From an uncultured Planctomycetota bacterium (GTDB lineage Bacteria; Planctomycetota; Planctomycetia; Isosphaerales; Isosphaeraceae): DNA of 64,000 nt. The notes under the pieces are model-generated. The model made no database searches, was not told the DNA's origin, and was given only the letters and a program-made list of their open reading frames with translations. The translations under genes and the position numbers were made by a program. The DNA lies in contig CAWJTV010000041.1 in NCBI GenBank assembly GCA_963845755.1, positions 608,001 through 672,000 on the forward strand, written 5' to 3'. The number at the start of each line of letters is the position of its first letter. The stretch's first letter is position 1. Of this stretch, positions 3,287 through 24,239 are shown piece after piece.

Positions 3287-3310
3287 CGTTGGACCAGGCA
3301 GCCTCCTTAC

Positions 3311-3658
3311 AGTCTTCCTCCGTAGGATCCCTGCGCCTCCGCGCCTCTGGGGATTCCGAATTCCGGATTCGAGATTCCCGATTCCCGGATCATTCCCCTT
3401 CGGGAATCCGGAATCGCGAATCGGGAATCCCGATGGGGTTGCGGCCGAGGAACGCTGACGAAACAACTTCCCGGAATCGGACCAGCCCTAACTCGTTCCG
3501 ACGCTCTGCGTGGGAATGCCTTCTTCGACGCTCTGCGTCGCGGCCTTCGGCCCCGCCCGTGGGACGCGGAGCGTCCCGGACGGCATTCCCACGCGGAGCA
3601 TTGGGAACGAGGGGAAATCGGGAGGTTGTTTCGTCAGCGTTCCAAGGCCGCGTTAGGG
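3311..3658. repeat. Dispersed palindromic element built from GATTCCC/GGGAATC-like heptamers, copy A (interrupted by an inserted MITE)
   Basis: Shares CGTAGGATCCCTGC, heptamer arrays and GGTTGCGGCCGA/AGGCCGCGTTAGGG ends with the reverse complement of 50512-50677. Confidence 0.75.
3449..3643. mobile_element. MITE-like element with 25-bp terminal inverted repeats, containing a REP-like palindrome pair (3492-3611)
   Basis: GGAACGCTGACGAAACAACTTCCCG (3449-3473) vs CGGGAGGTTGTTTCGTCAGCGTTCC (3619-3643), 24/25 match; inner CTCGTTCCGACGCTCTGCGTGGGAATGCC ... GGCATTCCCACGCGGAGCATTGGGAACGAG. Confidence 0.75.
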
Positions 3659-3949
3659 CTTCTTGGGCTCCGCGGGCGGTGGCGTGGAGGAAGTATCCGG
3701 CTTGATCACCGGCGAAGCCAGATCGTGCTGCAGGTCCTGCTCGAGCTTCGACGACTTCCCGGGTTCGACGGGGTTCGTCTGAGGTGGCACCGGCGGCGCC
3801 GGCGGTCGAGACGGTCCGGCGTTGGGTAACGGGCTGATCGGGGCGCTCGTCGGTGCCGATTCCTCCGGGGCACAGCCGGAGGCGACCATGGAGGCGACCA
3901 CCAGGGCCGGTAGAGTCAACCAGGCTTTCCGATTCGTTCTGACCGACAT
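3653..3949 (-). CDS. Small Pro-rich lipoprotein
   Basis: MSVRTNRKAWLTLPALVVASMVASGC lipobox; AGGAG upstream; low-complexity Pro-rich body. Confidence 0.65.
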   Translation of the reverse strand: MSVRTNRKAWLTLPALVVASMVASGCAPEESAPTSAPISPLPNAGPSRPPAPPVPPQTNPVEPGKSSKLEQDLQHDLASPVIKPDTSSTPPPAEPKKP

Positions 3950-4089
3950 GGGTTTTCTCCTATCAAAGCGTGATGAAGATTCCCTGCCGGTCACTTTCCT
4001 GCACGATGCGTGCCTCCGAGGTTGGAAATACCGCGCAATCCGGGGACCAGGGGGTACGCCTGCTTCCTTCCCCGTCCGGTTGACTCTTC

Positions 4090-4653
4090 TTAGCGACCCA
4101 CCCCCAGCGAATCCGCCACGCGGTTGATGTAGTTGAACCACGACGCGATCAGGGTGATCTGGAGTATGGCGCGGTCGTCGAAGCCCGAGGCGCGGAGCCG
4201 CTCATGGTCATCCGGCGAGACCCTGGTCGCATCCTTGGTGAGCTTGACGACGTAATCGATCATGACCCGCTCCTGATCGGTGATCGGAGCCTTCGTGTAA
4301 TCCTCGCGAAGCGCCTGGACGAGGTCGTCGTCCAGGGTGACCCGACGCAGAAACTCTGCGTGTGAGACAATTCAGTAATGACACTTGTTCGTGAGCGAGA
4401 CCATGGTCGCGATCATCTCATGCTGCCGGCGCCGGAGCGGCAGGTCCGGCGACATGAGGGAGCCGAATGTGGCGAACGCGTGGTAGAGCGCCTGCGGGAT
4501 CAAGGAGTGTGAGGCGACGATCCCCGGCAGGCCCTGGTCGAGCTCCTGCACGGGCTGCGCATATTCCGGGGGATAGAGCGTGCGCTGATCGGCCATCGCC
4601 TTGAGTACTGCGTCATCCTCGCCGTCCAACGGAGTTGTTCGAATCCAGGCCAT
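4090..4653 (-). CDS. AhpD/carboxymuconolactone decarboxylase-family peroxidase-like protein, probable selenoprotein (CHYU; TGA at 4372-4374)
   Basis: The frame continues through TGA: ...[26 protein letters not shown]...[22 protein letters not shown] to TAA at 4090; completes the CxxC-type AhpD motif. Confidence 0.9.
4345..4361 (-). promoter_or_regulatory. Candidate bacterial SECIS hairpin
   Basis: ACGCAGA-GTT-TCTGCGT, 7-bp stem starting 10 nt after the UGA. Confidence 0.7.
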
Positions 4654-4679
4654 GAGTGGAAACCCCTCTCCGGTTCAGT

Positions 4680-6113
4680 TCAAAGGTCGGTGAAGGCGGT
4701 CGCCGCGGAAGATTCCTCGCCCGATCCCTTTGGCAGGCGATCAGCCGCGCCGGCCGGCGGTCGCCGCGACATGACCCATGCGGCGACGGGCACTCCCAGC
4801 AGGACGACGGCGAACCCGATCCCGACGCGCCGGGGATCGCGCAGAGTCTGCAGGAGGATCACGATCACGATCGGGACGAGGGCCAGCAGGAGCGTAACGG
4901 GATAGCCGGGCACGGACAAGGGGGTCTTCGTCAGCCGGCGTGCGCGGCGTTGGAGGACGAAGACCCCGGCCAGGGCGAGCGCCAGGAAGGCCAGGGTCGG
5001 GACCATGAAATAATCGAGGATCTGTTCGAACGTGCCGGTCAAGGTGAGCACGCAGGCCAGCGCGGACTGGATCGCGATGGCCCGCAGGGGAGTCCCCCAG
5101 CGCGGGTCGATCGCGGCGATGGTGGGGAAGAACAATCCATCTCGCGCCATCGCGTAATACACGCGCGGGAATGCCATGAGGACCGCGGCCAGGCTGCCGG
5201 CCACCGAGGCGACCACGCCGGCCGCGAAGAGGATCTCCCCTGTGCCGCCGAAGAGGGCCCGGCCGGCCAGGGCCGCGAACGCCGCCCGGTCCTGGTCCGT
5301 CGTGATCTGGTCCGGCGCGACCAGATAGAGGAACACCACACTGACGGCAATGTAGACCATCGTGACGATCGACACGCCCAGCACCAATGCGCGGGGCATG
5401 GTGCGTTCGGGATCGCGGACCTCGCCCGCGATCTTGCTGGCATCCCACCAGCCCGCGATCGAGATGAAGGCCAGGATCAGGCCGCCGCCCAGGGCCGTCA
5501 GCGGCGGGTCCGAGCCGGCTCGCTGGGTCCAGAACGGCGTCAGGTTCGACCAGTCGCCGCCGCCGGAAGCGAAGCCCCAGACGACGAGGAAACCGAGCAG
5601 GCCCAGCTTCAACCCCGTCAAGGCGCGGAGGACCCCCGAGCCCAGCGCGATGCCCACCATGTTGAACGCGGCCAGGCCCACGATCGCGGCGATGGCCACC
5701 GCCTTCAGTGCCCAGCCGGAGAGCGGTGCCAGGTGCGCGACGTAGTCCGCCAGGCCGACGGCCAGCATCGCGGTCAAACCCGGGTCGGTGACCAGCATCG
5801 AGAGCCACCCGTAGAGGAAGGCCGTGCGCGGTCCGAACGCTTCTCTCAGATAAACGTAGACCCCGCCGGCCTCGGGATAGCGCGCCGCCAGGCCGCCGAA
5901 GCACAGGGCCCCGCCGATGGCGCTGATCCCCATCGCCAGCCAGACCGCCACGATCCATGTTGGCGAGCCCAGCGACTTTGCCATCCCGGCCGGCGCCAGG
6001 AAGATCCCCACGCCGATCACCTCGCCCACGACCAGGGCGGTCGCGGTCGCCAGGCCGAGTCGACGCGCCAGGTCCCGCTTCGGCGCGATGGTATCGTCCG
6101 TCTGGTTGTCCAT
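4680..6113 (-). CDS. APC-superfamily amino acid permease
   Basis: GEVIGVGIF..P, YPEAGGVYVYLREAFG, GEVRDPERTMPRA, PRVYYAMARDGLF; about 12 hydrophobic segments. Confidence 0.93.
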   Translation of the reverse strand: MDNQTDDTIAPKRDLARRLGLATATALVVGEVIGVGIFLAPAGMAKSLGSPTWIVAVWLAMGISAIGGALCFGGLAARYPEAGGVYVYLREAFGPRTAFLYGWLSMLVTDPGLTAMLAVGLADYVAHLAPLSGWALKAVAIAAIVGLAAFNMVGIALGSGVLRALTGLKLGLLGFLVVWGFASGGGDWSNLTPFWTQRAGSDPPLTALGGGLILAFISIAGWWDASKIAGEVRDPERTMPRALVLGVSIVTMVYIAVSVVFLYLVAPDQITTDQDRAAFAALAGRALFGGTGEILFAAGVVASVAGSLAAVLMAFPRVYYAMARDGLFFPTIAAIDPRWGTPLRAIAIQSALACVLTLTGTFEQILDYFMVPTLAFLALALAGVFVLQRRARRLTKTPLSVPGYPVTLLLALVPIVIVILLQTLRDPRRVGIGFAVVLLGVPVAAWVMSRRPPAGAADRLPKGSGEESSAATAFTDL

Positions 6114-6186
6114 GATCCGTCATCCGGAAGAGATGCTCCCGGCCCTCGCCTCGTCGGGGCGGGTTCCGAGAGCATCGATCGTTCAT

Positions 6187-7257
6187 TCAATAGTCCGACG
6201 CACTGATCACTTCGTTGCCATTCCGGGTGCTCAGGGCGCGCCACACGGTCAGGGCCACGCTGTCCTTGATGAACCGGACCGACCCGTCGCCGAACAGGAG
6301 GTTGACCCCGCCGGGGTGAGAGCTCGACGGGGGGAGATCCACGGCCATGTTCGCCATCGAGCCCATCATCATTCCAGAGGACATGCTCGCACAAGTCCGC
6401 GTATTCGGCGTGCCGACGTGGTTGTAGGTCGAGCAGCTCATGTCGCCGATGGCCCAGGTGGCTCCCATCCAGCTCGTGAGGGGCATGGCCATGCTCGGGC
6501 TCATGCTGGTGCACATCTGCAGGGTTTGATCGATGGTCAAGGCGGTGTTCATCATGTACATGTCGTTCTTCAGGTCGGGTGTCCCCTGGCCGCGGCGCCG
6601 CTCGCTGAAGAAGGCGGTGTTGCTGGTCCCGTCGGTCATGCTCGCCAGGTTGACGCAGCTCATGTTGTAGAGCGGGCCCTGGGGCAGATAGCCCGGCGCG
6701 ACCGTGCTGGGGGTCTGCTGGCAGCAGTCGCAGAGCCATGACCCCTCGTTGCCGAAGTAGTTGTTGCCGCCGTCCCAGCCGGGCGGGCCGCTCGCCGAGG
6801 ACGGGTCCGACGGGCACAGGAATGCCGACATCGCGATCCGGCACACCGTGCTGTTCTCGCGGTTCGGGTCCTGGAACGCCGGCATGAACCCCATGTTGTA
6901 ATTGTCCATGAACGGCGTTTCCGGCGGCAGGTTGAAGTTGATCGCGTTGAATAAGGGTGTTTGCTCGAAGAAACCGAGGATCTGGCTGTGAGTGGACCAT
7001 CGGGCGTAGGTCGGCGCCATGGGGATCACACTCATGTAATTATTCCCCTTGCCGAAGGGGAGGCTATTGAGCGCATCGACGTAGTTGTGCAGGGCCAACC
7101 CGAACTGCTTGAGGTTGTTGGTGCACTGGAACCGCCGGGCCGCCTCCCGCGCCGATTGCACGGCCGGCAGGAGCAGCGCGATTAGGACCGCGATGATCGC
7201 GATCACCACCAGGAGCTCGATCAGGGTGAAACCCGATCGGCGATGATTCCGAAGCAT
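6187..7257 (-). CDS. DUF1559 protein, Met/Cys-rich variable region
   Basis: GFTLIELL prepilin motif; [14 protein letters not shown]. Confidence 0.95.
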
Positions 7258-7338
7258 GGATCATCCTTTCATAGGATAAGATCAGGGCCGTTCACGGTGC
7301 AAAGGCCTTCTGAAACGCCCGTCACGTCGGGATGCGAT

Positions 7339-7814
7339 TCACTTCCGAAGCATGTCGCGAAAGACGGTCACCGATGGACTCGTGCCGACGAGGTACCACA
7401 CCGTCTTCTCGGCGGCCTTCCCTTGACTCTTTCCCGGGCCGTTCAGCGTGAGCTTGACCTGGACGCGAAGATTGGCGTCGTAGGCCTTGCCGTCGTCGAT
7501 CACCTGATAGTCGACCAGCCTGGCGCCGGCGGCCCAGTCGAAGTCCTGGACGGTCATCGGCGTCGCGGACGATGCGAGCGACCTGGGATCCTCCCCTTTC
7601 TTCCACTGCTCCAGGGCGGTCTTGAGCGCCTCGCGGGCGCAGGCGGGTTAACGGCATGAGCACCGGCGGAGCCCGAGCAGCCCGAGAAGAACAGGGTAGC
7701 CAGCACGCCGAGGCAGGCGGCCAGCACGCCGAGCGTGCCGTACCAGCTCAAGTCGCGGTCGCCCCGCCGGGCCACGGAATGCGCGAACGTCATCGATTTC
7801 GTCGTGATGATCAT
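7339..7814 (-). CDS. Lipoprotein partner of DUF1559 (frameshifted near 7640, probably sequencing error)
   Basis: FFSGC lipobox; joined frames give AREALKTALEQWKKGE...VQDFDW..GARLVDY, similar to 11306-11713. Confidence 0.75.
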
Positions 7815-7850
7815 CAGTCACCTCCAATTCGTTGATAAGTCCCTGGACGC

Positions 7851-8810
7851 TCAGAAGCTGTCGGCACTGACGATCTCGCCACCGTTCCGAGTCCCCAGTG
7901 CACGCCAGGTTTGCAGGTTGACCGAGTCCTTGACGAACTTGACCGATCCGTCGCCGAAGCAGACATTGACGCCGCCGGGATGACGGCTGCTCGGCGGCAT
8001 CACCGCGCGAAGGGCGATGAAGAACCCGCAGGACCGCGAGTTCGGCGGCGTGACGTGCAGGAAGATGTGCTGCCCATTCAGCCACGGCGCGCCCATGAAG
8101 AGCGGGAACTGATTGTTCAGGTCGAAGATATTCACGGCCTGGCAGATCTGCATGGCCTGGTCGGGCGTCGTGGGGGACGCGGGCGAGAAGAACACGTCCG
8201 CGACCGGGCTGACGACCGCGTTGTTGCCGTCGGCCAGGACCCGCTCGCTGAAGAACGTCGTATTGGATAGCCCGTCGGTGATCGCGGCGAACGTCGTGGC
8301 GCTGTCGCCGTAGAAGATGCCATTGGGCTGGGGCAGCCCGGCGTTGCCGCCGACCGCCTGCTGCCAGACGATGCCGCTGCCCATGTTGGCCATGTAGTTC
8401 GTCTGACCCCCCAACGAGGGGATCGGATCCGGCAGGTCCGAGGGACAGATGAAGCCGTTGATGACCGTCATCATGGCGGTGAAGTTGGTCGGATCCTGAT
8501 AGGAAAAGTCGCAGTTGATCGTGTTATACACGTTCGACTGCTCCAGGTACGGCAAGATCTGCGAGAGGGCCGAAAGCTCGGTGGCGTTGGGGCTGTTGTA
8601 CACCATGTCGGCCCCCGGCAAGGCATTGCGCGACTCGAAATAATTGTGCAGGCCAAGGCCGATCTGCTTGAGATTGTTGACGCACTGAGCCCGCCGCGCG
8701 GCCTCCCGCGCCGCCTGCACTGCGGGCAAGAGCAGCGCGATTAACACGGAGATAATGGCAATGACCACCAGCAGCTCGATGAGCGTGAATGCGGAACGGC
8801 GACGAATCAT
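7851..8810 (-). CDS. DUF1559 protein
   Basis: [14 protein letters not shown]...; [14 protein letters not shown]. Confidence 0.95.
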
Positions 8811-9187
8811 GGGGATCTCCTTCGATCGTATGTGGGTCAATGATGGAAACGGAATTGAAGCGATTGATTGACTCGTGCGCACATTCACACCAGGGACCGG
8901 TCCTCGATGGGTCGAGTCAGGGGCCACGGGCTCTTCATGACGTCACGGAGCCGCGGTGGAATCCAGGCCCTGAGATCGATCCGGTGTCATCGCGAACGGA
9001 GCCGGGTGGGTCAGCTGGTGTGCGACGCGGTAGCCCGATCGAACCGGGATAGCTCTCTGCCCATGCGATGACGATCGAACCTCGACCCAGCAAGGGTCAC
9101 CTCGAACCTGGAGGGAGAAAGGCCCGATTCGCTCGAGTCTTGCGACCATGCGCACATGAAGATTGAGCGGACTGTTGAGATGTCGGG

Positions 9188-9627
9188 TCAGGCGGGAGGA
9201 GGATGGAAGATGGAGGGCTTTTCTCCGGCGGCCCGCTCGGACGGTTCATCGACCGTTCGACTCGGCGGAGTGAGTGGGGGAGGATCGCCAGCGTTGTCAA
9301 GACGCCCCATTGGTCGGAGCGGTCGGAGTCTGGGGAAGCGTCGTCGGGGCCGGCATGGGAACTCGGTTCGAGCAACCCGGACCCGAGCACGGTGTAGGAT
9401 GCTTGGGTCCCGGCTCTCCCGCGGGATCATCCGAGCGTGAGGAAGGCGAGCCGCCGGTAATGAGCTTATCGAGCTGGTTGATGCCGAGGAGCCGATGGGA
9501 ATGCGAGGAGACGAGGTGATTGCAGACGGCCCAGGCGGGGCGAGCCATACCGAGACCGTGGACCAAGAGCAGCATCAGCGCCTCCGGTTGCCCACCGCGT
9601 CACTCGCTCAAAACGCCTGTACTTCAT
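9188..9627 (-). CDS. Leader ORF copy 1 (signal peptide, AxAxCNH, PCSGPGCS, C-terminal FHPP); frameshifted
   Basis: Pieces in successive frames: MKYRRF.., ..ARPAWAVCNHLVSS..PCSGPGCS.., ..DQWGV.., ..KPSIFHPPPA*; paralogous to copies 2-4. Confidence 0.7.
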
Positions 9628-9967
9628 TATTGTCTCACGGCCGAACGGGAGATATCCCGTTCGCGGAAACCCATCTTGAGGTTGATACCTTGAGATGCCG
9701 AGTTGAAGGGACAATGTCCCCACTTTCGTTGAGATAACATACACGCTCGGGGCATGGCATTGCAAGAAGTTACCAGAGAGAAATCCCATGCCCCGTTCCG
9801 AGACGAGGGACCGAGGTCATCGATCGCAGCGAAACGGGTCGTGTCTCCTTCGAGGGCCGCAAATCACTTCTGGCTCATGTGAGGAAGCTCGTGGGCGGGC
9901 AGGTCCCGCGGGAAACCAGTCAGGTCTTCCCGCGGGAATCCCACTCCAGCGAAAGCCACCCCTCCCG

Positions 9968-11281
9968 TCATTTCGGCCGAACGATTCGCTGTCGCGGCGC
10001 GGGACCAGTCTCCGTTCTCACTCTCTGGCTGCGGTCGGCGGCCACCCCGGTGGGTTCGGGACCTTCGGCCGATTCCTGGTCGAGCAAGAGCATCACTAAA
10101 GACTGTTCCAGTTCACCCGGCTTGAACCCCATGGGGCCGCGCCCTCCCTTGTAGACAACCCGGCCATCCCGGTTGATGAGGTAGAGTCGGTCCGGCATGC
10201 CGCTGTAGGCGTGGCCCACCCGATCGTCCAACTCGTCCACGAGCAGGGGCATCGTCATCTTCAGGAGCGTGCAACACTTCTTGGCCACGGCGAATCGCTC
10301 GCCGGGGTCAGTCGGCTGACTGAGGGCAATTCCGGCCTTCTCGTTGCTCGGGAGCGGCCAGCCATCGGTCGGATGGGCCTCGCGGACGTAGACCCCCAGA
10401 AATGCAACGCGATCATCGTACCGCTTGTACATCTCTTCGAGGACCCCAAACTGGGATCGGTAGGGCGGTCAGGTGAAGCTGCCGAAGATCAGGACGACAG
10501 GTTTCTTGCCGCGGTACTGTGAGAGCCCGATGACGCCACTGTGGTCGTGGGTCGTGAGCGTGAAGTCCGGGGCCGGTGCCCCGAGGTCCGGACCTTCGAA
10601 CGTCGAGCCGATATCGCCGTTGAGTATCACTTTGAGTCGATCCACGCGGTCTGCGAAGGTGGCGAATCGGGATCTTGGCCGCTCCGCATTGATGAACATC
10701 GCGTCGCGGAGGTCATCGTTGGTAAGGTGGTCCTTACCCTGGGCGACGATGGTGAAGAATGCCTTCCACTCGCCCTCGGTAATCCGGCCGTTCGCGTCGG
10801 AATCGATCATATCGAACCGGCGGCTCCCCTGCCGTGCCATCTGGTACCACGCCGACCGCTCCGACCAGTCGAAGTCGGTTGCGGCGATCACGCCGTCGTG
10901 GTCGCGGTCGAGCCGGTCCCAGTCGGGGGCCGGTCCCGTGAACTCATGGCGGAGGATCACGCCGTTGCGATCACGGTCGAACCGGGAGGCGAGCCACTCC
11001 CACGTGTAGCGCGAGATGCTGGGGTGATACCAACCGCCCGGCGAACCGCTGGTACGCGGTGCGGTCGAGAAATTGGACCGGATCTGTTCGAACAGTTCGG
11101 GCATGCGGCCGGCGCGGATGGCCGGTGCGATAGCCTGCCGGAGACGGTTCGGATCGATCGCGTTGAGTCGTGGCCGTTGCGGCGCCGGTTTGGCTTCGTC
11201 TGCCGCCGGAGCGGGGACGCCGCCAGCCAGCGCGAACAGGGCCGCCAGCGCGGCGGCCCTGGTTCGTGAGTTCATCGTCAT
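9968..11281 (-). CDS. Secreted EF-hand + iodothyronine-deiodinase-like (thioredoxin-fold) protein, probable selenoprotein (FGSFTUPP; TGA at 10469-10471)
   Basis: ORFs 10469-11281 and 9968-10432 are in the same frame: KPVVLIFGSFT-U-PPYRSQ...VYVREAHPTDGW...YSGMPDRLY; DxDxNG EF-hands; N-terminal signal peptide. Confidence 0.92.
10442..10458 (-). promoter_or_regulatory. Candidate bacterial SECIS hairpin
   Basis: GATCCCA-GTT-TGGGGTC, 7-bp stem (one G-U) starting 10 nt after the UGA; same geometry as 4345-4361. Confidence 0.7.
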
Positions 11282-11305
11282 GTCCTCCAGAGGGTAAGAT
11301 TGTGA

Positions 11306-11713
11306 TTAGTTGAATACCAAGCGAGAGACCGTCCCGACCGGGTTGGTGCTGACCCGATACTCAGCCGATTCCTTCGTCTGTTTCCCCTTGACGTTGGTCA
11401 GCCAGAGTGTGACCTCGAATGCCTGCTGGCCTCCCTTGGGTGAACCCGGGCCTTTCAACTCGAACTTCGTCAGCTTGCTGCCGCTTTCCCATTTCGGCTC
11501 GGAGACCTTGATCGGCGGGTTGGCCTTCTCCATCCCTTCGAGGGTCTCTCCGTTCTGCCAGGATGTGAGCGCCCGCTCCAGGGTTCGTTTCGCCTCGTCG
11601 AGGTTCGGGGGGGACGGTGCCGGGATGCTCTCGCATCCGAATAGGACGATCAGAACGGACGCCGCCAGGACTGACCTGGAGCGAAGGTAGGGTGCGAAAC
11701 GTCGTTCACGCAT
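11306..11713 (-). CDS. Lipoprotein partner of DUF1559
   Basis: LFGC lipobox; AKRTLERALTSWQNGE...W.SG.KL..FEL. Confidence 0.85.
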   Translation of the reverse strand: MRERRFAPYLRSRSVLAASVLIVLFGCESIPAPSPPNLDEAKRTLERALTSWQNGETLEGMEKANPPIKVSEPKWESGSKLTKFELKGPGSPKGGQQAFEVTLWLTNVKGKQTKESAEYRVSTNPVGTVSRLVFN

Positions 11714-11747
11714 TATGAGACCTCCTCGTCAGGTGTTTGCGAATGGA

Positions 11748-12743
11748 TCAATAGTTGTCGCTCGAGATCACCTCACCGCCATTCCTCGAGCCGATCGCGC
11801 GCCAGACGGTCCGATCGATCGTCTGCTTGAAGAAGCGGACCGAGCCGTCGCACATGCCGACGTTCACGCCGCCGGGGTGGAGGCTCGTGGAGGTCAAGGT
11901 GAGCCGTTCTGGGTAGTAATAGCAGGACATCGTGTTGGGTGGGGACACGTGCTTGTAGGGCGTGACCGAAACCGTGCCGGAAATCCAGGGCGTGCCTTCG
12001 GTTGACGATCCATTGGACGGTGTCGCGGTGGGGTCGAGCGCCTGGCAGTACTGGTAGGCCTGCTCCGGAGTGGTCGGGATAACCGTTCCGACGTAGATGT
12101 CGCGGATCTGGTTGGCGACGGCGGTATTGAAGTCGCCCAGCAGCTTCTCGGCGGTCGCCGCCGTGTTGCTCGTGCCGTCTGTGATCTGGGCCAGGGTCAC
12201 CGCGGTGTTGTCGAAGAACGGCCCATCGGGCGCCGGCAGCGACGCGTTATACCCCGACGGGTCAGTCGCGCCCCATTCGTAAGCGATGGTCGTTCCCTCA
12301 CTGAAGCGGTAATCACTGCCTGCCTCGCCCGCGGGCACTTGCTGGGGGTCGGTAGGGCAGAGGAGACCCGAGATGACGGTGGCCAACGCCGTGGTGTTAC
12401 CGGCCTGGTATGTGGTCCCCGACGGCAGGTTGAAGTTGATCGACGCGTAAAGGGGCGCCTGCTCGATGAATGGCAGCAACATGGCGAACGCCGAGTACGC
12501 GTATGGGGTTGGCACCGGGGGTGCGGCTACAAAAACGCTACGGTTGATCGGGAAGCTCCCGAAGGAGCTGTTGTAGTTGTGCAGCGCCAGTCCCAGTTGC
12601 TTCAAGTTGTTGACGCACTGCGCCCGCCGGGCCGCCTCGCGGGCGGCCTGGACGGCGGGCAGCAAGAGTGCGATCAGTACCGAGATGATTGCGATCACCA
12701 CTAAGAGCTCGATCAGCGTGAAACCGGATCGTTGCCTGTTCAT
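11748..12743 (-). CDS. DUF1559 protein
   Basis: GFTLIELL motif; [14 protein letters not shown]. Confidence 0.95.
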
Positions 12744-13074
12744 GACTGGGACTCCTCAAGGTTCGAGATCGTAACAACAGCTTCGTCTTCAAGGACACCG
12801 GAGGGCGACATTGCCGGCGCGTAGGCCGGACCCGAGCCTCTCAGGGAGTGGCTGTGCCGGGTACCGGCCACGGGCGCGTACCATCGTTCGGGGATGGATC
12901 GGGCGCGGTGAGTGGACTCACACCCCGACCGAAACCGGACAACACAGTGCATTGCGTACGACGGTCATGGCGATCGCCGCACGCAAAGCGACGACCGCGG
13001 GACTTCGACTCGGAAGACTTGGGGCGATTTCCTTTCGTGCCAGATGTGCTCAGAAATCGGCATGAACGCGAGGA

Positions 13075-14544: not shown

Positions 14545-14920
14545 GGTTTAGACCCTCAGTTAGTTGAGCCTGTTGTAAATTAGCATCAAATTCACATGTT
14601 TTGAAAGTTATGGACGCGTCGTCCCGCACGTGGTCCGAGCCCGTCACGCCTAGAAAGCAGTCGATCCGGACCCGGATCGTTGCGCAGGCGCGATTCGAGT
14701 CGAAGGAGCATGGTGCCGCGACGATGCGGCCCGAGTGATCCTCGACCGGTTCCTGAGTCGCAGCTCGTGGACTTTCCGGACCTAGGGCGCATCGACGCCC
14801 CGGAGTCGGATGTGATCACCGGAGGAGCACACGCCAGGCGATCATTTGGCCCATCGGGCGCGAGACATCATCGAAGATGTCCCTCCCCGCGGCGGGAAAC
14901 CGACGACGGATTCGGCGCAA

Positions 14921-15420
14921 CTACCGAGGGGTCCGCGTCGGGACCGCACGCAGGAAACCCATCGCGACGATCGGGTCTTCAGGCGCACGGAGGAGGAGTC
15001 GAGGCGGATGGAACACTCGGCTCCCCCGATGAACTGGGCGAGGAGCGGTCATTACCCCTGCGAGGAAGGTGGGACATTGCGGGCGCATCGCCCGGAACGA
15101 CGAGCACCACGCCCAGGTATCGATTCGTCCGTCGCTGACGCCGGCCGGAACCGCCGGCGCGGCCGGTTGTCCTGAGCAGAACGCCCCTGAGCAGGGGCGC
15201 GGACGTGAGGGCTCCGGGATGGGATCGGCGGGAATGGCCAGATCGTGCATCAAGGAATCCGTCAACATGGAGGGCTTGTGTCGATCGGTCCGGGACGTGA
15301 CGAGGTGCGAGCAACCGGCCTGCGCCCGGGGGCGCAATCGGTAGCCAGCGCCAGGAGAACCACGAGAGCTCTTGCCGGCGGCGACACCAGTCGTTGAAGG
15401 AAGAAGGACCTCGCCATCAT
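14921..15420 (-). CDS. Leader ORF copy 2 (signal peptide, AQAGCSH, PCSGAFCS, FHPPR); frameshift near 15325
   Basis: MMARSFFLQRL..ALVVLLALA joins RAQAGCSHLVTS...PCSGAFCSGQP...SRVFHPPR; exact stop uncertain. Confidence 0.72.
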
Positions 15421-15507
15421 ACCCGCTTGTTGAGCATCGATCCCGCCCGTCTCGAGAGGGGTACGCAATGAGGCGAACGGGACCGCGAGTTATCAAGAAT
15501 TTCGAAT

Positions 15508-15536
15508 AAGGTATACGTGAACTGATCGGTTTTCAA
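15508..15536 (-). promoter_or_regulatory. Sigma70-like promoter of leader copy 2
   Basis: TTGAAA-17 nt-TACCTT; same layout upstream of copies 3 and 4. Confidence 0.7.
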
Positions 15537-15608
15537 GAGCCTTGTCATTTTTCCGGGGGTCCATGATACTGCGGGCGAGTGGAAAAAGGGGATGGGATTG
15601 TTGTGTCC

Positions 15609-16995
15609 TCACTTGCCACTCGTCGCGGCCTTGTCCTTCTCCCTGGGCGGCTGGTTATCCTTGAAAACATTCTCGCGCTCCAGGGGGATCTGGAAGGCGT
15701 CGGCAACCCGGGTCATATAGTGACAACGGCACGCCCAAAACAGGATGTCGAGTGTGCGTTCGGCGCCGAAGTGATCGATGAGCCGGTTCATGTCCTCGGC
15801 CGTGATCGACCAGGGCTCCCTGGACTGTTTGCGAGCAAAACGGTATGCGGCCCGATCGCCGGGAGGAAAAGAAGACCAATCCCCACTGGCCAACCGCCGT
15901 GTCCGTTCATCGAGTGCCAACTTGTCGAGGCCCGCGACCGCGAGCAGCATTTCGCAGTGCCCCATTCAGTAAAAGCAATGGATCGTGCGCGTCACGATCC
16001 AGAAGAGGCTCTCCTCGAAGACACGGTCCTGTTTCGATTCTTCGCGAAACGCGCGGGTGCAGGCCGACCAGGCCATCGCCAGCTCGGGCTGGTAGCCCAT
16101 GGTCACCAGGCTCCATCGGATGCGGATCGGCTTCTCAGGCCGGGAGACCCCCGGGGGCATCGCGCGGAGCACTTCCTCCCAGGACGGGACGCGAATCCGG
16201 CTGGGCCTTGCCCGCTGTTCCATGAGCCGCCCCTGGAGATCGTTGAACTCCATGGACAGCCAGAAGGGATCGTTGAACTCGCGACGGCTCTTCTGGGATG
16301 GGTCGGCCTTCGGAACGCTTCCGGGCCGGGACCGGTGGCGGTTCGGTCTTGGAATCGAGGCGGACCTCCAGCGGAGGCAACGGGCCACCAGGCTCGATGG
16401 GCGAGCCAAGGGCCAGGAGGAGTCGGTCCTGGAAGTTGGCATGGGCCAGCAGCAAGACCATGGCCACGACCTTCTCTTCGCCGTACCAGCCGATCAGATG
16501 CGCGACCTCGGCATCGGTGACCTCGGAGGCATCCTCGGTCATCTGGCGAGCAAAGTCGAGTGCTGCCCGCTCGGGTTCGGGCAGATCCCGATGGTCCCCT
16601 TTCAGGGAACGGAGCCCGGCCTCATCGAGGCCGTCACGCCGCAGGTCGGCCTCGGCATACGCCATGCTGTATTCGCAACGATTGGCATGACCGGCCACCC
16701 ATCGCATCTTGCCTCGGAGCATCGGCCCGAGGGGATTCCGCGCCCGATGCGCGAAGTCGAGACGGATCATCGCCGCCGTGGTTCGCGGCATCGCACCGGC
16801 CATCGCGCCCGCCCAGGACGGCAGGGCCCGGCCATTTCGCTCCTTGGTCGGCGAGAGCTTTCGCCAGCACTCGTCATCGCTCAAGAGCGGGAAGATGCCG
16901 GCCGCACCGTTGCGGGGCGGTTCGGCCGCCAGGTCGCTCGGCAGCAGGAGGGCCACCATCGGTAGCAGGATGCCGAGATTGATCACTCTAAACAT
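15609..16995 (-). CDS. Secreted tandem AhpD/CMD-domain protein, probable selenoprotein (CFYU; TGA at 15966-15968); frameshift near 16275
   Basis: WIVTRTIHCFY-TGA-MGHCEM aligns to WVVTRSINCPY-C-MGHTEM of 13075-14544; frame continues to 15609. Confidence 0.87.
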
Positions 16996-17071
16996 AAAAG
17001 AGACTCCTCGATTCAATGATCCAGGACCGACGAGAGGATGGATCGGCCTGCCGAAGGCGGTGTCGAGTGAC

Positions 17072-17635
17072 TCATGGGTTTGACGTTGTGGACGGACGGT
17101 TCTTTTGATACGAACGCAGCAACTGCGTGAGCCGCTGTCGCGCTTCTATGCTGAGATCGCAGTACAACTCATATTTCGGTCCGAACATCTTGACCTCTCC
17201 GCATTCCAGGCAAATCAGGGCCTGGGTTGCGGCTTCTCCCGCCTTCCACTCGATGGCGTAGTCGGGAGAGTAACCGCCGCATCGCTTTTTCTCGTCGTAT
17301 CGTTTGAATGACGCCTTGGAGGAAAACAGCGCAGTGAATGGCTCGGAGTCCGTCCCTTGTAACGTACGTTGCTCCTCGTAAAACGGGTAACCATGAAACG
17401 TGATCGTCTTCTTCTGAGTCAGCTCCTGTTCCCGTAATTCCGGTTCCCAAAACTCGCTGGGGAGTCCTTCATGGAGCAAGATATCCCCCGATTTCGGAAT
17501 GCCTGCGAGAAGCTGCGGCAGTCGGGCGAAATCCGTATCGGTTTTCTGCGGTGGTTCAGGCTCGCCCTGGATTTGTGTGGCTTGCGAGCAGCCCGCGAAC
17601 AGGATCGCCGCCAATAACAGCCAGCGACGATCCAT
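17072..17635 (-). CDS. Hypothetical lipoprotein
   Basis: MDRRWLLLAAILFAGC lipobox; KRCGGYSPDY..ICLECGE Cys motif. Confidence 0.75.
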   Translation of the reverse strand: MDRRWLLLAAILFAGCSQATQIQGEPEPPQKTDTDFARLPQLLAGIPKSGDILLHEGLPSEFWEPELREQELTQKKTITFHGYPFYEEQRTLQGTDSEPFTALFSSKASFKRYDEKKRCGGYSPDYAIEWKAGEAATQALICLECGEVKMFGPKYELYCDLSIEARQRLTQLLRSYQKNRPSTTSNP

Positions 17636-17791
17636 GACTGGACTCCAGGCCTTGAATTGCACCTCAGGAACTAGGCCGCGCGAGCCTGCGGTCTCGCTCG
17701 AGGAGCGTCGCCTTCCGAAGAGCCAGCAGGTCCGGGTTGCTCGCATATTCGCGTCAGGTCTCCGCTCGGTTCCCCACATCTCCAGCCTGGA

Positions 17792-18706
17792 TCAATAGCC
17801 GTCGATGATCTGTCCGTCGTTTCTCACAGCCAGCTTGTTGAGGACGCTGAGGTCGGTCGAGTTAATCACGGCCATCACATGGCCGTCGGTGAAAAGAAAC
17901 TGGCAGATGCCGGGGTGGTAGCTGCCGAACTTGCAATGCCACGGGCCACTCAGGTCGTAGAGCCCCTGACCCAGGTTGAATTGCGGAAGACCGGCGATTC
18001 GGGAGAAATTGCGTGGGAAGTCACCGTTGTAGATCGCGCCGTCTCCCCACGACGGTCCGCTCTGGCCGAACTTGCTCAGCGGGACGTGTTTCTCGCCGAC
18101 GAGAAACGTATGACTGGTCCCGTCGGTAACGTCGCGTAACCGAGTTTGCGATTGCGTTTGCACCAGTTGACTGTTGGTGATTTGCGACTGGGCCTGGCAC
18201 ATGGCGCCGTTGCACAACGGATTATCCACGATCGAGCCGGCAAACTGCCCACCATTGCCGGCATAATCCCCCACCACTCCCGGATACTGCTGAGTATCGG
18301 GAATCCCGGTGCTGGAGATCTCGAACTGCGTGCTCAGCATGGGCGGCCGCCGGGTGGGGCAATAGAACGCCTCGACAGCCGTGGCCCTCACCGTCGATTG
18401 CTGCAAGTAATAGGTGTTTGTGAGGTTCCACGCGTTGTAGAGGGGGGTCTGCTCCATGAAAGGAAGGATCTCGATGAACCAGGTGGCGTGCTGAGGTCCG
18501 ACGCGGCTCGAGGGCAGGGTCTGCTGCACCTGCTCGAAGTTATGAATGGCCAGGCCGATCTGTTTGAGGTGGTTGGCACACTGAGCCCGCCGGGCCGCCT
18601 CACGACTCTGCTGCACGGCGGGCAGCAACAAGGCGATCAAGACCGAGATGATCGCGATCACCACCAAGAGCTCGATCAAGGTGAATGCTGCTCGTTGTCT
18701 TCTCAT
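17792..18706 (-). CDS. DUF1559 protein
   Basis: AFTLIELL motif; [18 protein letters not shown]. Confidence 0.95.
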
Positions 18707-19108
18707 GGGTTGAAACTCCGTGTTGAGTCAGAATGAGCCGGCTTGGGTCGAAACGTCTCATGAGAGAGGATTGCGCTGGGATTCTTAGGTAAACGGTCAT
18801 CTCGCGGGCTGCGCGTGCAGGCAGGCGGGATGTCTCCGCCACAAGACCGAATTGAATCGAATGTTTAGGAGCCTGTTCTCGAGTAACAACTCGCGAACTA
18901 TCCCGGTCAGGGCGCAGACGACATTACGGAGTCGGATGCCCGGACCGGACAAGTCTACGCGCAGCAACGATCCCAACGGCGGGCGGGAGACCGCATCGAA
19001 GATGTCCACTCCCATCGCTGCAACTCGACGACGAATCCGGCGCAGGCGACAAGCGAACCCGAGACGAGATCGGCATCTCGGAAGGGACCAACCGCGAGGA
19101 TCAATTCG

Positions 19109-19548
19109 TCATGTCGGCTGGATGAGCGATGGGGGCGGATGGAACACGCCAATCCCTCGCCGCACGGGGCGCATCGCGGTCGCTTCCCAGGAAAGGAAGG
19201 AGGATTGTACGGAGTTCAAGAGGTGGGCCGACGAAGACCAGGGCCAGGAATCAATCCGAACGTCAGTCACCCCGGCCGGGACGGCCGGCACATCCGGCTG
19301 TCCCGAGCAAAACGCGCCCGAGCAGGGGCGCGACGGCGGGCGCTCCGGAAGCCGATCGGAAGGGGCGACCAGATCGCGCACCAAGGACTCGGTCAGCGCG
19401 GAGGACTCGGGCCGATTGGTCAGGGACGTGACGCGGTGCGAGCAGCCGGCCTGCGCGCGGGTGGCGCAATCGCAGCCATCGCCAGGAACGCCAGAACGGC
19501 TCCTGCCGGAATCGAGACCGGTCGCTGGAAGGTAACGGACCTCGTCAT
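19109..19548 (-). CDS. Leader ORF copy 3 (signal peptide, AQAGCSH, PCSGAFCS, FHPPP); frameshift near 19460
   Basis: MTRSVTFQRP..AVLAFLAMAAIA joins RAQAGCSHRVTS...PCSGAFCSGQP...GVFHPPPSLIQPT*. Confidence 0.72.
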
Positions 19549-19638
19549 CGCACCAAGTTCTTGGGGATCGATCGCTTCCATCCCGAAAGAGAGTCGCAAC
19601 GGAGCGATCGAGATCGTGAGCCATCAAGAGTTCCGAAT

Positions 19639-19667
19639 AAGCTACAGGTGAAACGATCGTGTTTCAA
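19639..19667 (-). promoter_or_regulatory. Sigma70-like promoter of leader copy 3
   Basis: TTGAAA-17 nt-TAGCTT. Confidence 0.7.
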
Positions 19668-19807
19668 GGGCCTCGTCATTTTTCCCGGGGCCTGGTGGGT
19701 CGATGGGACTCACCCCCTGCTGAAGTCGTAGTTGGCGTAGCCCTGGTTGGCCAGAAGCAAGGTTGGGTCTAACTTTCCCGGTGGCGGACTCGGTGAGCCG
19801 GCAGGGC

Positions 19808-20355
19808 TCACCGCTTGCCGAAGTCGTAATTCACGTACCCCTGGTTGGCCAGCCGCAATCCCGACTCCTCGTAGGCAGCGGGTCGCTCGGGGCCCAGGTT
19901 CCCAGGCCATCCACGTACCGATTGAACATGCAGAACGCCGCGGCGATCAGGACCGTATCGTGGATCGCCTTGTCATCGGCACCCTCGGCACGGGCGCGAT
20001 CGACGTCCGCCGCCTCGACGAGCCGTCCGTCGCGCCGGACTTTGTCGGCGATTGCGAGCAGAGCCTTCAATTTCGGCGAAACCAGGGCGGAATCGGGATT
20101 CTCGAGTACCTCATCGACAACCACGGTTCTCCCCGTAGTGTACCCGGGCTGCTGCCGCATGCGACTGCGTGCAGAAGTGACACCGATTCCTCGACGACAC
20201 ATAGGAGGCGATCAGCTCGCGCTCGGCCGACGTCAGTGACGACGGCGCTCTCAGAGCGCCTCGGCCAGGCCACTCAGATGGACCTGGGTTTCCGGGTAGG
20301 CGATCATCGGCCCGACGATGCCCGGTACGCCTTCGGGCAATGAGATATGCGCCAT
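19808..20355 (-). CDS. AhpD/CMD peroxidase-related protein, Cys form (NRCHFC); several frameshifts
   Basis: MAHISLPEGVPGI..., ERELIASYVSSRNRCHFCTQSH, DTVLIAAAFCMFNRYVDGL. Confidence 0.85.
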
Positions 20356-20399
20356 GGATGTCTTCCTCCACTGGTTCGTGAGTTCCCGAGAAGTCCGGG

Positions 20400-21682
20400 T
20401 CAGTTCGAGGACGGACGCGTCACATGCGATGACTCGCGCTGAACCTGGACTCCACTGGGCGTTGAAGCCGCGGCCTGGGTCGGCCGCGTCGCACCTTCCT
20501 GAAGGAGCAGGATGAGCGAGTGCTCCAGTTCGGCCGGCTTGAACAGGTACGGGCCGCGTCCACTCTTGAAGCCGACCTTGCCCTCTCGGTCGATGACATA
20601 AAGGCGGCCGGGCATGCCGCTATAGCGGTTGCCGGCCAGGTCGTCGATCGAATCGACGAGCATCGGGAAGCCGAGCCCGAGGAGCCGACTGCAGGTCTGG
20701 GCGACTTCGCGCGCTCGTCGTAGGTCCGGGGCTGGGCCGTGGCGACGTTCGCGCGATCGTTGCTGTCCATCCGCCAGCCATCGGTCGGATGGGCTTCCCG
20801 CACGTAGACCATCACGAACGTGGCGCGGTCCTTGTAACGCCGGTAGAGCTTCTCCATGTTCCCGGCCTGGCTGCGGAACGGCCCGCAGGTGAAGTTCCCG
20901 AAGACCAGGACGACCGGCTTGGGGCCGATCAGTTTCGAGAGCGTGATCTCGCCCTTGCCGTCATTGGTCTTGAGCGTAAAATCGGGCGCACTCTCGTCGA
21001 GCTTCGGACCCGGCTCGAGCGAACCGACCTCTCGACGAAACAGGCCGCGGATCAGCGTCGCCTTCGAAGGCCGCCCCGTGTTCGGGCCGGTCGGAGGCAT
21101 CGGAGGTGGGGCGAACGCCTCTTGCAGGTCGGAGAGCGACAGGAAGTCCTGACCGCCGCTGTCGGCCGCCCGGAAGAACGCGTCAACCTCCTCGCGCGTG
21201 ACCTTGCCGTTGCTGTCGCGATCCATGCGCGAGAATATCAGAGATCCCGGCGAAGGTGCCAGCGAGCTGCCCGAGAAGTCGAAATCGGGCGGTGTCAATA
21301 CACCGTCGTGATTGCGGTCCAGCCGCGCGAAGTCGTCGCCGCCGCCGAACTCCTGGCGCGTGATCTTGCCGTTAGCGTCGCGGTCGAATCGCTTGCGAGT
21401 CGCGTTCCAGTCGAATCGCGTTTGCGAAACGGCCGTGCGAAACCAGCCGAAGTTGGGACTCATCGGTTCTTCTTCGAGAATGCTTGCGAGCATATCGACC
21501 CACTCGGGATGATCGGGCCAGGATTCATTCAGAGCCGCGGCCACCTCTGCCACCTCTCGCTGGTGGGCCTCAGCCGGTGAGGCCGGCGGCTTCCTCGGGT
21601 CGTCGGCCGCCACCAGCGCCGCCACGACCCACGGGAGGAGGATCGTGCTCGCGGTCGTCCGGATTCCAGGTCGTCTGTTCAT
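20400..21682 (-). CDS. Secreted EF-hand + deiodinase-like protein, Cys form (FGNFTCGPF); frameshifts near 20700
   Basis: Paralog of 9968-11281: KPVVLVFGNFTCGPFRSQ...VYVREAHPTDGW...YSGMPGRLY. Confidence 0.88.
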
Positions 21683-22219
21683 CAGGAGGCTCCTCAGTTC
21701 TTTGATTCGTGTCTGGGCAGGAAATGGGGCGCGCGGTCGGCCGGGGGCAGCACTCCGGAGCGGGAATCGGCGCGGTCCGATGGGCGCGCGCGGGGTCGTC
21801 CTCGGCACAGGGCGAGGTATCCGAGAGCGGGACTACCTGGGTTGGCGGAGGCGCGTCCTTCTCGATCCGCCTCGCCATGAGTCGCACGGCGATGAAATCG
21901 GCCAGGAATCGCCTTGAAATATTGTTGCTGTCATCCATAGCAGGCAATCCTTTCACGCTCGGTTTCTCGGAGGCATACTGACGAATGGCGAGCGCAAACG
22001 AGCTCTGTGTAACCCGCCTCGAGTGGCCCCTCGACCCCCTTGGGGCTGGGTCACCGGAGCCTTGCAACAGGGTAAGGAGAGTCGGTGGACCGAGATCGAT
22101 CGATCACGATTCGAGATCGAGCATCGTGCTGCTCGCAATCACCTGCGATCGCCGGTCCGATGGGATACGCGCCGCGCACGGATTGAAACGATCCCACCGG
22201 GTCAACTCCGTTGAGGCGA

Positions 22220-22672
22220 TTAAGAGTGTGAATGCGACTGGAGATGCCGGGGAGGCCGTTCCGGCGGAGAGGAATTGTGCCGTGGATGTGCCCGGAGGAT
22301 CTCGGGCCGTATCTCGGTCGAGTTCGGGCTATCCCAGCCGGGTGCTACGGTTGTGCAGCACCAGGATTCACTTCGCAAGGAAGTCGCTGGCGATGGTGCC
22401 GGCGGCAACGGTTGTCCCTGCGAGCAGGATAGGCCGGAACACGGTTGGTTGCGCCGGGGCCCGGGCAGCGCCGAATCGCGAGGGCTGGCGAGGGAAGCAT
22501 CGAGCCATGCCAGGTCAGCGAGCGATTCTTGGACCGATCGGCTCAGTTGAGAAGTGACGCCATGACTGCAACCCGCCCGAGCTGTTGAGGGCGCAATGCC
22601 CCCGACCGTCAGGAGCACGCAGAATGCCCCCGTAACCCAGTGCTTCGCTCGCTGGCGGAACGAAGAGATCAT
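22220..22672 (-). CDS. Leader ORF copy 4, intact 150 aa (signal peptide, ARAGCSH, PCSGLSCS, ERPPR)
   Basis: MISSFRQRAKHWVTGAFCVLLTVGGIAPSTARAGCSH...PCSGLSCSQGQP...SWCC...PERPPRHLQSHSHS. Confidence 0.8.
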   Translation of the reverse strand: MISSFRQRAKHWVTGAFCVLLTVGGIAPSTARAGCSHGVTSQLSRSVQESLADLAWLDASLASPRDSALPGPRRNQPCSGLSCSQGQPLPPAPSPATSLRSESWCCTTVAPGWDSPNSTEIRPEILRAHPRHNSSPPERPPRHLQSHSHS

Positions 22673-22718
22673 TTCGACTCGAGTTGGTGAGGGAACGGCG
22701 ATCTGAGAAATCAGTAAA

Positions 22719-22747
22719 AGGCTATCCGGTAAAAGGTCGGATTTCAA
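22719..22747 (-). promoter_or_regulatory. Sigma70-like promoter of leader copy 4
   Basis: TTGAAA-17 nt-TAGCCT. Confidence 0.65.
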
Positions 22748-23982: not shown

Positions 23983-24239
23983 GACCCGAAGCTCCGATCG
24001 ACCTGACATCCAGGGCCGCGACGCCCGATGCGGCATCGCGACCGAACCGGGCTCGTGCGCCCATGCGCCCGCCACCGCCGCGTCCCGACGCTCCTGAGCC
24101 GCGGACCACTCCACTCTACCCGCTCCGGTGCTGCGTAACCATCCATGGTCGTTGGTCCTCGGTCCTTCGATTGATTTCGAGGGCCCTCCATCCTCGCAGA
24201 GGGCGGCTCGGTCGGCTTGCGAACCAAAGCCCGAAGACT

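Follow-up and report, generated by a model that had tools for sequence, protein, structure and literature searches.

A cysteine-bearing exported leader protein, probably stalling its own ribosome, heads an apparently undescribed redox/DUF1559 regulon in Isosphaeraceae

We analysed a 64,000-nucleotide stretch of DNA (the window) from an uncultured planctomycete of the family Isosphaeraceae (GenBank assembly GCA_963845755.1, contig CAWJTV010000041.1, positions 608,001 to 672,000), in which four tandem operons on the minus strand, each opening with a leader, combine DUF1559 prepilin-like proteins with lipoproteins and redox enzymes of the AhpD and deiodinase types (Table 1). On our analysis, the leader is an exported, cysteine-bearing protein; by arresting the ribosome that makes it, it probably turns the operon on or off, and it heads an apparently undescribed redox/DUF1559 regulon. 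The positions and order of the genes are as first described in the original prediction, which had been made from the sequence alone. In domain scans of 25 references in Pfam and 24 in NCBIfam, four genes of the stretch carry DUF1559 together with the N-methyl prepilin motif, and neither the leaders nor any of the four lipoproteins match a family. The prediction was also right in placing a leader at the head of each operon, but it missed what the leader is, namely a protein-coding, exported upstream open reading frame (uORF) and not an RNA element.

Each leader encodes a protein of about 145 residues; leader 4 is intact, and leaders 1 to 3 match intact relatives across frame breaks. A census of the fetched loci gave 124 distinct profile hits, 111 of them parsed as intact. 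A hydrophobic signal is present in 104 of 110 leaders (signal peptides being scored without SignalP, and cleavage deduced from small residues before the first Cys), the ATG lies 32-37 codons upstream of that Cys in 90/111, and a His stands two residues past it in 63/111. The conserved core consists of this N-terminal Cys, a Cys-x4-Cys motif and a terminal (Phe/Glu/Asp)-(His/Arg)-Pro-Pro, mostly followed by Arg, with position -1 occupied by Phe (59%), Glu (20%) or Asp (12%) and the next by His (59%) or Arg (37%), and with at most 13 residues from Pro-Pro to the stop in 107/111. From the third Cys to x-Pro-Pro, 107 of the 111 leaders measure 54-59 residues (67 of them exactly 56), whereas the interval between the first and second Cys varies from 28 to 62 residues in the same set; in other families, sampled as the 20 best-scoring loci among those not fetched earlier, 18 of the 19 members that could be parsed measure 56-58. 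The invariant Cys, Gly, Cys, Pro and Pro are encoded by synonymous codons, the proportion of non-synonymous differences (pN, 0.25) is about half that of synonymous ones (pS, 0.49) by a rough count, with pN<pS in 75/75 non-independent pairs, and DNA conservation ends right after the stop codon in alignments of three subfamilies; as judged from these sequence comparisons, the family is under purifying selection. The predicted structure has one N-terminal signal helix and is otherwise unstructured (predicted template modelling score, pTM, 0.23).

A profile built from the four leaders finds matches in 74 of 100 other Isosphaeraceae genomes, and a larger profile in 31 of 36 genomes of the family; for five further families within the class the figures are 10/35, 10/30, 3/19, 1/5 and 1/1 genomes. 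In a sample of the phylum, 9 of 300 other genomes have matches, few candidates having been scored per genome, so that absence is unproven; three of these matches, from outside the class, have E-values of 4e-5 to 6e-4 and internal stops. The family comprises 2,629 representatives at 50% identity with E<=0.001, and 1,119 at E<=1e-10. The present genome carries six copies, four of them in this cluster, and among cultured carriers, where NCBI lists the leader as a 'hypothetical protein', are Singulisphaera sp., Paludisphaera mucosa and Aquisphaera giovannonii.

That the same parts are reordered under paralogous leaders, as originally proposed, is seen in 20 regions, chosen for their strong matches, from 13 genomes. 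For an unbiased estimate of the linkage we considered all 47 leader matches in 10 near-complete genomes, with 5.5 kb downstream of each, and the predicted conserved co-occurrence is indeed found: 35 are followed by DUF1559, 28 by the lipoprotein family, 25 by a tandem AhpD and 7 by a deiodinase; 32 have at least one AhpD- or deiodinase-like redox gene, and 27 have both DUF1559 and a redox gene. By chance, a DUF1559 start would lie within 5.5 kb downstream of only 2.2% of 20,000 random positions in this genome. Conversely, in five of the near-complete genomes 20 of the 22 genes for tandem AhpDs and 6 of the 7 for deiodinases lie downstream of a leader, one of the leaders so counted coming from a separate search. 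In the present genome all tandem-AhpD and deiodinase copies at E<1e-8 fall inside this cluster, and a locus search with the tandem AhpD gave three loci, two with leaders and a third truncated by the contig start. In the 20 loci from other families, DUF1559 is the first gene in 9 and a redox gene is among the first five in 11.

Further cargo includes, frequently, FG-GAP/ASPIC-UnbV proteins, sometimes with an RnfD-like membrane protein, as well as multi-haem c-TPR proteins, NMT1/SsuA-type ABC systems, MgtE, ArsP and CutC, while copper/heavy-metal RND efflux genes occur only in loci L005 and L113. In the former (G000:C28:403612-412000), the fifth leader of this genome is followed by a Met-rich DUF1559 gene, a lipoprotein and heavy-metal-binding efflux genes, a layout shared by L113. 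The sixth leader (L006, G000:C14:40000-48895) precedes an FG-GAP/ASPIC-UnbV gene and a 329-aa membrane gene, and orthologues of the pair in L090, L132 and L186 have a weak RnfD/NQR2 match. In L183 and L184 (genomes G437 and G479), the leader is followed by a 112-aa gene of no known identity and, about 1.3-1.4 kb on, by the large and small subunits of ribonucleotide reductase.

Both deiodinase-like genes of the window score far above the NF038285 cut-off (367.5 and 410.6 bits against 250), and the best solved matches of the deiodinase domain are mammalian iodothyronine deiodinases (PDB 4tr3, 9h48; E 4e-21), with the redox residue aligned. The single AhpDs, of TIGR01926 type, and the Cys-form tandem AhpD match CMD/AhpD models, while both pieces of the selenocysteine-form tandem AhpD give weak, sub-cut-off matches to the AhpD family. 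The Cys-form tandem AhpD has its best PDB match in the debrominase Bmp8 (6ohi, E 5e-4), and its first Cys aligns with the Bmp8 Cys that is Ala in 6ohj; this match is weak and close to those with generic AhpDs, and the likeness is one of sequence only. Bmp8 and deiodinases share reductive-dehalogenation chemistry. A deiodinase-tandem-AhpD fusion of 849 aa, found in L121, suggests that the two form a working pair, and four-domain AhpD-like proteins of 830-925 aa occur in seven loci (L095, L109, L145, L146, L195, L197 and L201). The system had been called extracytoplasmic, which agrees with the tandem AhpDs, the deiodinases, the lipoproteins and DUF1559, but not with the single-domain AhpDs, which lack a signal peptide and would therefore act in the cytoplasm.

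The proposed use of selenocysteine was upheld on every indirect line of evidence. The UGA codons align with Cys in homologues, and selA, selB (in pieces), selC and selD are all present in the genome. Across the fetched loci, the redox position is encoded by UGA in 10 single AhpDs, 7 tandem AhpDs and 1 deiodinase, and by a Cys codon in 13, 57 and 24, respectively, and a hairpin resembling a selenocysteine insertion sequence (SECIS), scored by a simple ad hoc rule as a stem of at least 6 pairs with a G-loop, follows 18 of 18 UGA and 13 of 94 Cys codons. Among the deiodinases, UGA is seen in this window alone, but the hairpin that follows it has the geometry of the conserved AhpD hairpin and is absent from all 24 Cys deiodinases, which makes a chance stop improbable. 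By all of these sequence-based tests, the three UGA codons of the window are read as selenocysteine. Elsewhere in the genome (G000:C4:54944-56894), the tRNA-Sec gene lies divergent from an adjoining DUF1559 gene.

The leader-linked DUF1559 proteins form a distinct group, with 44 of 49 falling into one 45-member clade (tree of 113 sequences, support 0.605, from which 52 of the 118 starts of this genome were left out as not full length). The functional context that the original prediction hoped to give to DUF1559 is gained for this one clade, about 5 of the 118 DUF1559-type genes of this genome, and not for the family as a whole; the redox context thus applies to a subfamily. DUF1559 has no sequence match in the PDB, and its model (pTM 0.88) none in Foldseek at E<=0.001, the large inserted part not having been searched alone; the model aligns only with type IV pilins (VIA-align, Z 2-4). 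Complex prediction for DUF1559 and the lipoprotein reaches 0.54 against 0.03 for the best control, a mark that 116 of 157 solved pairs and 2 of 215 mismatched ones attain, with contact agreement of at least 73% and a partner predicted local distance difference test score of at least 85, and gives weak support to the two forming a complex.

DUF1559 operons are run by at least two leader types. In four loci, one in this genome, true DUF2946-type uORFs, with CxxC and RAPP/RGPP motifs, stand upstream of DUF1559 genes, and the PF11162 (DUF2946) matches in five genomes fall on genes other than those of the present leader family. In G000:C11:86571-90000 (L139, L152), such a uORF (CxxC, RAPP) precedes DUF1559, a lipoprotein and a gene for a Csp1-like four-helix copper-storage protein, the last identified by a sub-cut-off match; further uORF-DUF1559 pairs of this kind are found in L138, which has two uORFs in tandem, L141 and L142. 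Since copper thus already has a DUF2946-type leader on DUF1559 operons, a non-metal signal is kept open for the family described here.

All four operons are preceded by a promoter-like pattern (TTG-x3, 17-18 nt, TA-x3-T), including the first, which had been listed without a promoter. A strict stock scan of the window for sigma-70 sites and terminators yields nothing above shuffled sequences and returns none of the four sites (it reports 2 sigma-70 sites, both on the plus strand, against 3.0 expected); a looser pattern is found upstream of 32 of 111 family members against 5.9 in shuffles. The leader is separated from the first gene by a spacer with a median of 350 nt (quartiles 261-476, none below 100 nt, n=102), and in the model of the four operons by 200-500 nt. 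Over the 60 nt past the leader stop there is an excess of C over G (skew 0.11 against -0.01 in 172 controls), and a rho gene is present. These features bear on two characterised exported uORF proteins. CruR (Bp2923) of Bordetella pertussis, a DUF2946/PF11162 protein, has a conserved spacing of 45 between its motifs and a long spacer (PMC9426467); its arrest has been demonstrated and is abolished by loss of the motif Arg (PMC12992588). CutF of Rhodobacter capsulatus (10.1101/2022.11.11.516240, 10.1101/2025.02.05.636593) acts on the start of the next gene, and with a median spacer of 350 nt such direct unmasking is unlikely here. The C-rich patch and the rho gene fit CruR-type termination control, weakly.

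From this we consider it probable that the leader is a nascent-chain sensor that lets a thiol-reactive signal in the periplasm govern an exported module of thiol/selenol reductases. The leader would be exported through the Sec translocon during its own translation; when the ribosome reaches the C-terminal (Phe/Glu/Asp)-(His/Arg)-Pro-Pro, the Cys-x4-Cys, 56 residues back, would just have cleared the exit tunnel and translocon and would stand exposed beside the free N-terminal Cys-x-His. Exit tunnel and translocon together span about 56 residues, and the spacing therefore fits sensing outside the membrane. A thiol-reactive signal acting on the three cysteines would alter the dwell time of the ribosome at Pro-Pro, which would in turn decide whether transcription passes through the spacer into the operon, in a CruR-like and probably Rho-dependent manner. 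The cargo would form an envelope thiol/selenol reductase module, in which an enzyme of deiodinase/peroxiredoxin fold with a single Cys or selenocysteine could be recycled by AhpD-fold proteins, completed by the DUF1559 pilin-like protein and its lipoprotein. In the mycobacterial AhpC/AhpD system a peroxiredoxin is recycled by AhpD, and a peroxiredoxin-like enzyme served in the same way would be the simplest model for this cargo.

As to the signal within this sensor model, we give about half of the weight to a thiophilic metal (Cu/Ag/Zn/Hg), somewhat less to thiol oxidation or a halogenating electrophile, and only a small remainder to selenium or another signal; selenium is a minor option because a single leader operon holds selD (L092 of genome G064, a few genes downstream of leader and DUF1559 gene) and most of the cargo is in the Cys form. 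A more specific proposal, which we hold as tentative and rather doubtful, would make the leader an arrest sensor of periplasmic thiol oxidation or halogenating electrophiles with a non-RAPP motif, heading a class-wide regulon whose deiodinase-fold selenoenzyme, together with Bmp8/AhpD-fold partners, would clear peroxides or halogens from the cell surface by reduction, with a dedicated DUF1559-lipoprotein unit displaying or supporting them.

Several observations weigh against the sensor model. The leader motif is not RAPP/RGPP, the Arg essential in CruR being replaced by Phe, Glu or Asp, nor is it among the arrest motifs listed in the accessible part of PMC10987492, and the Pro-rich tail of CutF is by itself a weak staller (10.1101/2022.11.11.516240). 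Neither a hairpin nor a terminator is conserved in the spacers (mean z -0.2 to -0.6), and the C skew fades beyond 60 nt. In the census, 13 of 124 hits were not parsable, related members were counted although kin are not independent, and the search profile itself favours a spacing of 54-59, so that this count leans that way; the contrast between fixed ruler and free N-terminal interval holds within one and the same leader set. As for linkage, 7 of 47 leaders lack both DUF1559 and a redox gene in the 5.5 kb that follow, and for 2 of the 22 tandem AhpDs and 1 of the 7 deiodinases the roughly 6 kb fetched upstream contain no leader. Cargo specific to metals is in the minority, which makes copper less likely as the signal, and redox cargo is no proof of redox sensing. 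The nearest named ESM Atlas clusters to the leader (DUF2946, DUF6660, CzcI and DUF6769, at 0.89-0.90) are all DUF2946-like, which favours the model as a lead only, and they share just 77-92 of 256 features with it. Lastly, three of the four leaders of the window are frameshifted.

The prevalence of exported cargo (prepilin-like proteins, lipoproteins, enzymes with signal peptides) and the known occurrence of RAPP/RGPP uORFs upstream of DsbA/thioredoxin genes (PMC12992588) would also suit a ligand-free monitor of secretion or prepilin export of the SecM/VemP type, in which the cysteines form a structural disulfide only and stalling reports the envelope's capacity for export or oxidative folding. 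We find this unlikely, as no sec or yidC gene is among the annotated cargo, the cysteines are odd in number (three) and accompanied by a conserved His, and a Cys-to-Pro-Pro ruler of constant length is what marks ligand sensing in CruR. A periplasmic peptide that binds metals or thiols or shuttles redox equivalents, acting in trans and standing first only incidentally, would likewise be expected to have a signal peptide and conserved Cys and His, and purifying selection by itself is no proof of action in cis. We give such a peptide an equally small chance: the protein is predicted to be unstructured, it conserves few residues apart from its cysteines and the Pro-Pro at its end, it always comes first and is followed by a long spacer, and there is no reason for a constant spacing unless the chain is held in the ribosome.

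Over 300 nt, leader 2 shares 73% identity with leader 3, and three of the four open reading frames are broken here, as might be expected of cis-regulatory RNAs (riboswitches or attenuators) with incidental reading frames. We rejected an RNA leader, which is highly improbable given the synonymous codon variation, pN<pS and intact frames in 111 of 124 hits, the lack of an Rfam match in the window and the lack of conserved sequence or folding signal in the spacer past the stop. Moreover, indels are general in this assembly (14.3 Mb, 88% complete, indel-rich), since 41 of its 118 DUF1559-type starts also lack an in-frame C-terminal motif, although some may lack it naturally. Frame breaks affect at least seven genes of the stretch (leaders 1-3, the Cys deiodinase, the Cys AhpD, the selenocysteine tandem AhpD and one lipoprotein), and could be real, with the cluster decaying in this organism and most copies pseudogenes, which would leave the family-level claim unaffected. 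We regard decay as slightly less probable still than a secretion monitor or a trans-acting peptide: the indel load is genome-wide, selB included, the pieces either side of each break keep 50-80% identity to intact relatives, and at position 20253 one contig of DNA run X1 (a single contig, depth 4.9) carries an extra base.

Table 1. Features of the four operons, in window coordinates.
Feature	Position	Strand	Basis or remark
Op4 sigma-70-like promoter, predicted	22719..22747	-	pattern match
Leader protein 4, intact, 150 aa, Glu-Arg-Pro-Pro-type tail	22220..22672	-	signal peptide, Cys, Cys-x4-Cys, tail 56 residues on
Small ORF inside Op4 spacer, start 21938	21570..21938	-	own ribosome-binding site
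Exported EF-hand + deiodinase-like protein (NF038285), Cys form	20400..21682	-	one frame break near 20710
Single-domain AhpD/CMD protein, Cys-x-x-Cys, without signal peptide	19808..20355	-	several frame breaks, one near 20253
Op3 promoter-like site	19639..19667	-	pattern match
Leader protein 3, Phe-His-Pro-Pro type	19109..19548	-	one frame break near 19460
Op3 DUF1559 prepilin-like protein, outside main leader-linked clade	17792..18706	-	Pfam, tree
Op3 lipoprotein, no family	17072..17635	-	Pfam scan
Exported tandem AhpD-like protein, Cys-x-x-Sec in second domain	15609..16995	-	UGA 15966-15968; frame break ~16280-16350
SECIS-like hairpin after tandem-AhpD UGA	15930..15945	-	6 pairs, G-starting loop at +27
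Op2 promoter-like site	15508..15536	-	pattern match
Leader protein 2, Phe-His-Pro-Pro type	14921..15420	-	frame break near 15325
Exported tandem AhpD-like protein, Cys form, 489 aa	13075..14544	-	CMD/AhpD match
Op2 DUF1559 prepilin-like protein, leader-linked clade	11748..12743	-	Pfam, tree, model
Op2 lipoprotein, unnamed planctomycete family	11306..11713	-	usual partner gene of leader-linked DUF1559
Exported EF-hand + deiodinase-like protein, Sec form	9968..11281	-	UGA 10469-10471
SECIS-like hairpin, Sec deiodinase	10442..10458	-	7 pairs, 3-nt loop starting with G at +18
Op1 promoter-like site	9736..9765	-	pattern match
Leader protein 1, Phe-His-Pro-Pro type	9188..9627	-	several frame breaks; 75% identical in part to intact L011
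Op1 DUF1559 protein, leader-linked clade	7851..8810	-	Pfam, tree
Op1 lipoprotein, same family as 11306-11713	7322..7813	-	frame break near 7645
Met/Cys-rich DUF1559 protein	6187..7257	-	6.5% Met, 10 Cys; non-linked paralogue median 1.8% Met
APC-family amino-acid permease	4680..6113	-	Pfam/NCBIfam
Single-domain AhpD-like selenoprotein, Cys-x-x-Sec, without signal peptide	4090..4653	-	UGA 4372-4374; TIGR01926 above cut-off
SECIS-like hairpin, single-domain AhpD	4345..4361	-	7 pairs, 3-nt loop starting with G at +18
Pro-rich lipoprotein, no family	3653..3949	-	Pfam scan

Some details of the cluster and its surroundings complete this picture. Relatives of leader 2 terminate at a TGA that is found here at 14979-14981 in another frame. 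The small reading frame in the Op4 spacer has an N-terminus and ribosome-binding site conserved in three relatives (L042, L043, L044) and no Pfam match; it overlaps the deiodinase start and is therefore probably frameshifted. Spacers in L045, L039 and L133 contain a solitary short reading frame matching only the signal-peptide part of the Op1 lipoprotein at 7322-7813. A duplication at 19694-19858 on the minus strand affects the 3' end of the Cys AhpD gene (67 nt, 78% identical), both copies lying within one reading frame in L044. Following Op1, at 775-2454 on the minus strand, are a fifth DUF1559 gene and a different type of lipoprotein, without a leader, in an order shared by L045; inverted and short tandem repeats (3290-3610) lie past the end of Op1, beside a plus-strand glyoxalase-family gene (2885-3286). 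A frameshifted RNA 3'-phosphate cyclase (RtcA-like) gene (22908-24114, minus strand) is directly upstream of the Op4 promoter.

The system had been thought undescribed, and for the leader family and operon type this stands: no description was found in the literature covered, which excludes subscription journals, nor in the accessible parts of PMC10987492, PMC8567305, PMC13188914 and PMC2754498. The regulatory principle, in contrast, has known relatives, because the leader shares with CruR and CutF the layout of an exported uORF product. Members may be listed unremarked among the published CutF-like proteins (29 clusters, list D): the supplementary text searched, which does not include the protein list, has no match to the leader, and 'Planctomyc' is absent from the accessible main text of 10.1101/2022.11.11.516240. 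With these CutF-like proteins the leader shares a size of at most about 150 aa, a signal peptide, Pro-Pro in the last 15 residues, a same-strand neighbour within 1,000 nt and a Cys motif that would be read in the periplasm. CutF itself has CxxxC and a stem-loop in a short spacer that hides the next ribosome-binding site, whereas the leader family has Cys-x4-Cys and no conserved structure in its spacers, and CutF-like spacers are mostly shorter than 100 nt, as none is here.

The likeness to CruR extends to a first gene of about 145 aa with an export signal, a fixed Cys-to-di-proline distance, a motif near the stop and a long spacer. In contrast to CruR, however, which has CxxC, RAPP, 45 residues between the motifs, and TonB or copper chaperones as cargo, the leader has Cys-x4-Cys with an N-terminal Cys-x-His, (Phe/Glu/Asp)-(His/Arg)-Pro-Pro, about 54 residues between the motifs, and AhpD, deiodinase and DUF1559 proteins as cargo. 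In line with this, none of 44 members matches PF11162 at E<=10, and by profile, Cys motif and arrest motif, all read from sequence, the leader falls outside DUF2946. A large unnamed family would be added to the few exported sensors of the nascent-chain type, from which it differs in di-proline motif and ruler.

The cargo, too, has described counterparts. Bacterial deiodinase-like (PF00837, NF038285) and AhpD-like/CMD (TIGR01926, PF02627) selenoproteins are covered in the review PMC13188914, which mentions clustering of peroxiredoxin-like and AhpD-like genes and has, in its accessible part, no occurrence of 'Planctomy'. The present enzymes share the folds and the interchange of selenocysteine and Cys at the redox residue; the exported EF-hand forms, the tandem and quadruple domains, the fusion, the DUF1559 link and the leader control do not appear in that part. 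DUF1559/SBP_bac_10 proteins (PF07596 with PF07963; PMC8567305) have the same domain architecture and likewise have neighbouring genes whose products carry signal peptides of type I or II, and what sets the present group apart is that a single clade is tied to a leader, one lipoprotein family and redox enzymes. The regulon offers one place to probe three long-unexplained groups, namely the bacterial deiodinase-like selenoproteins, the exported tandem AhpDs and a DUF1559 clade, and, set against CruR, its leader family tests whether arrest requires the RAPP arginine and whether such sensors read non-metals.

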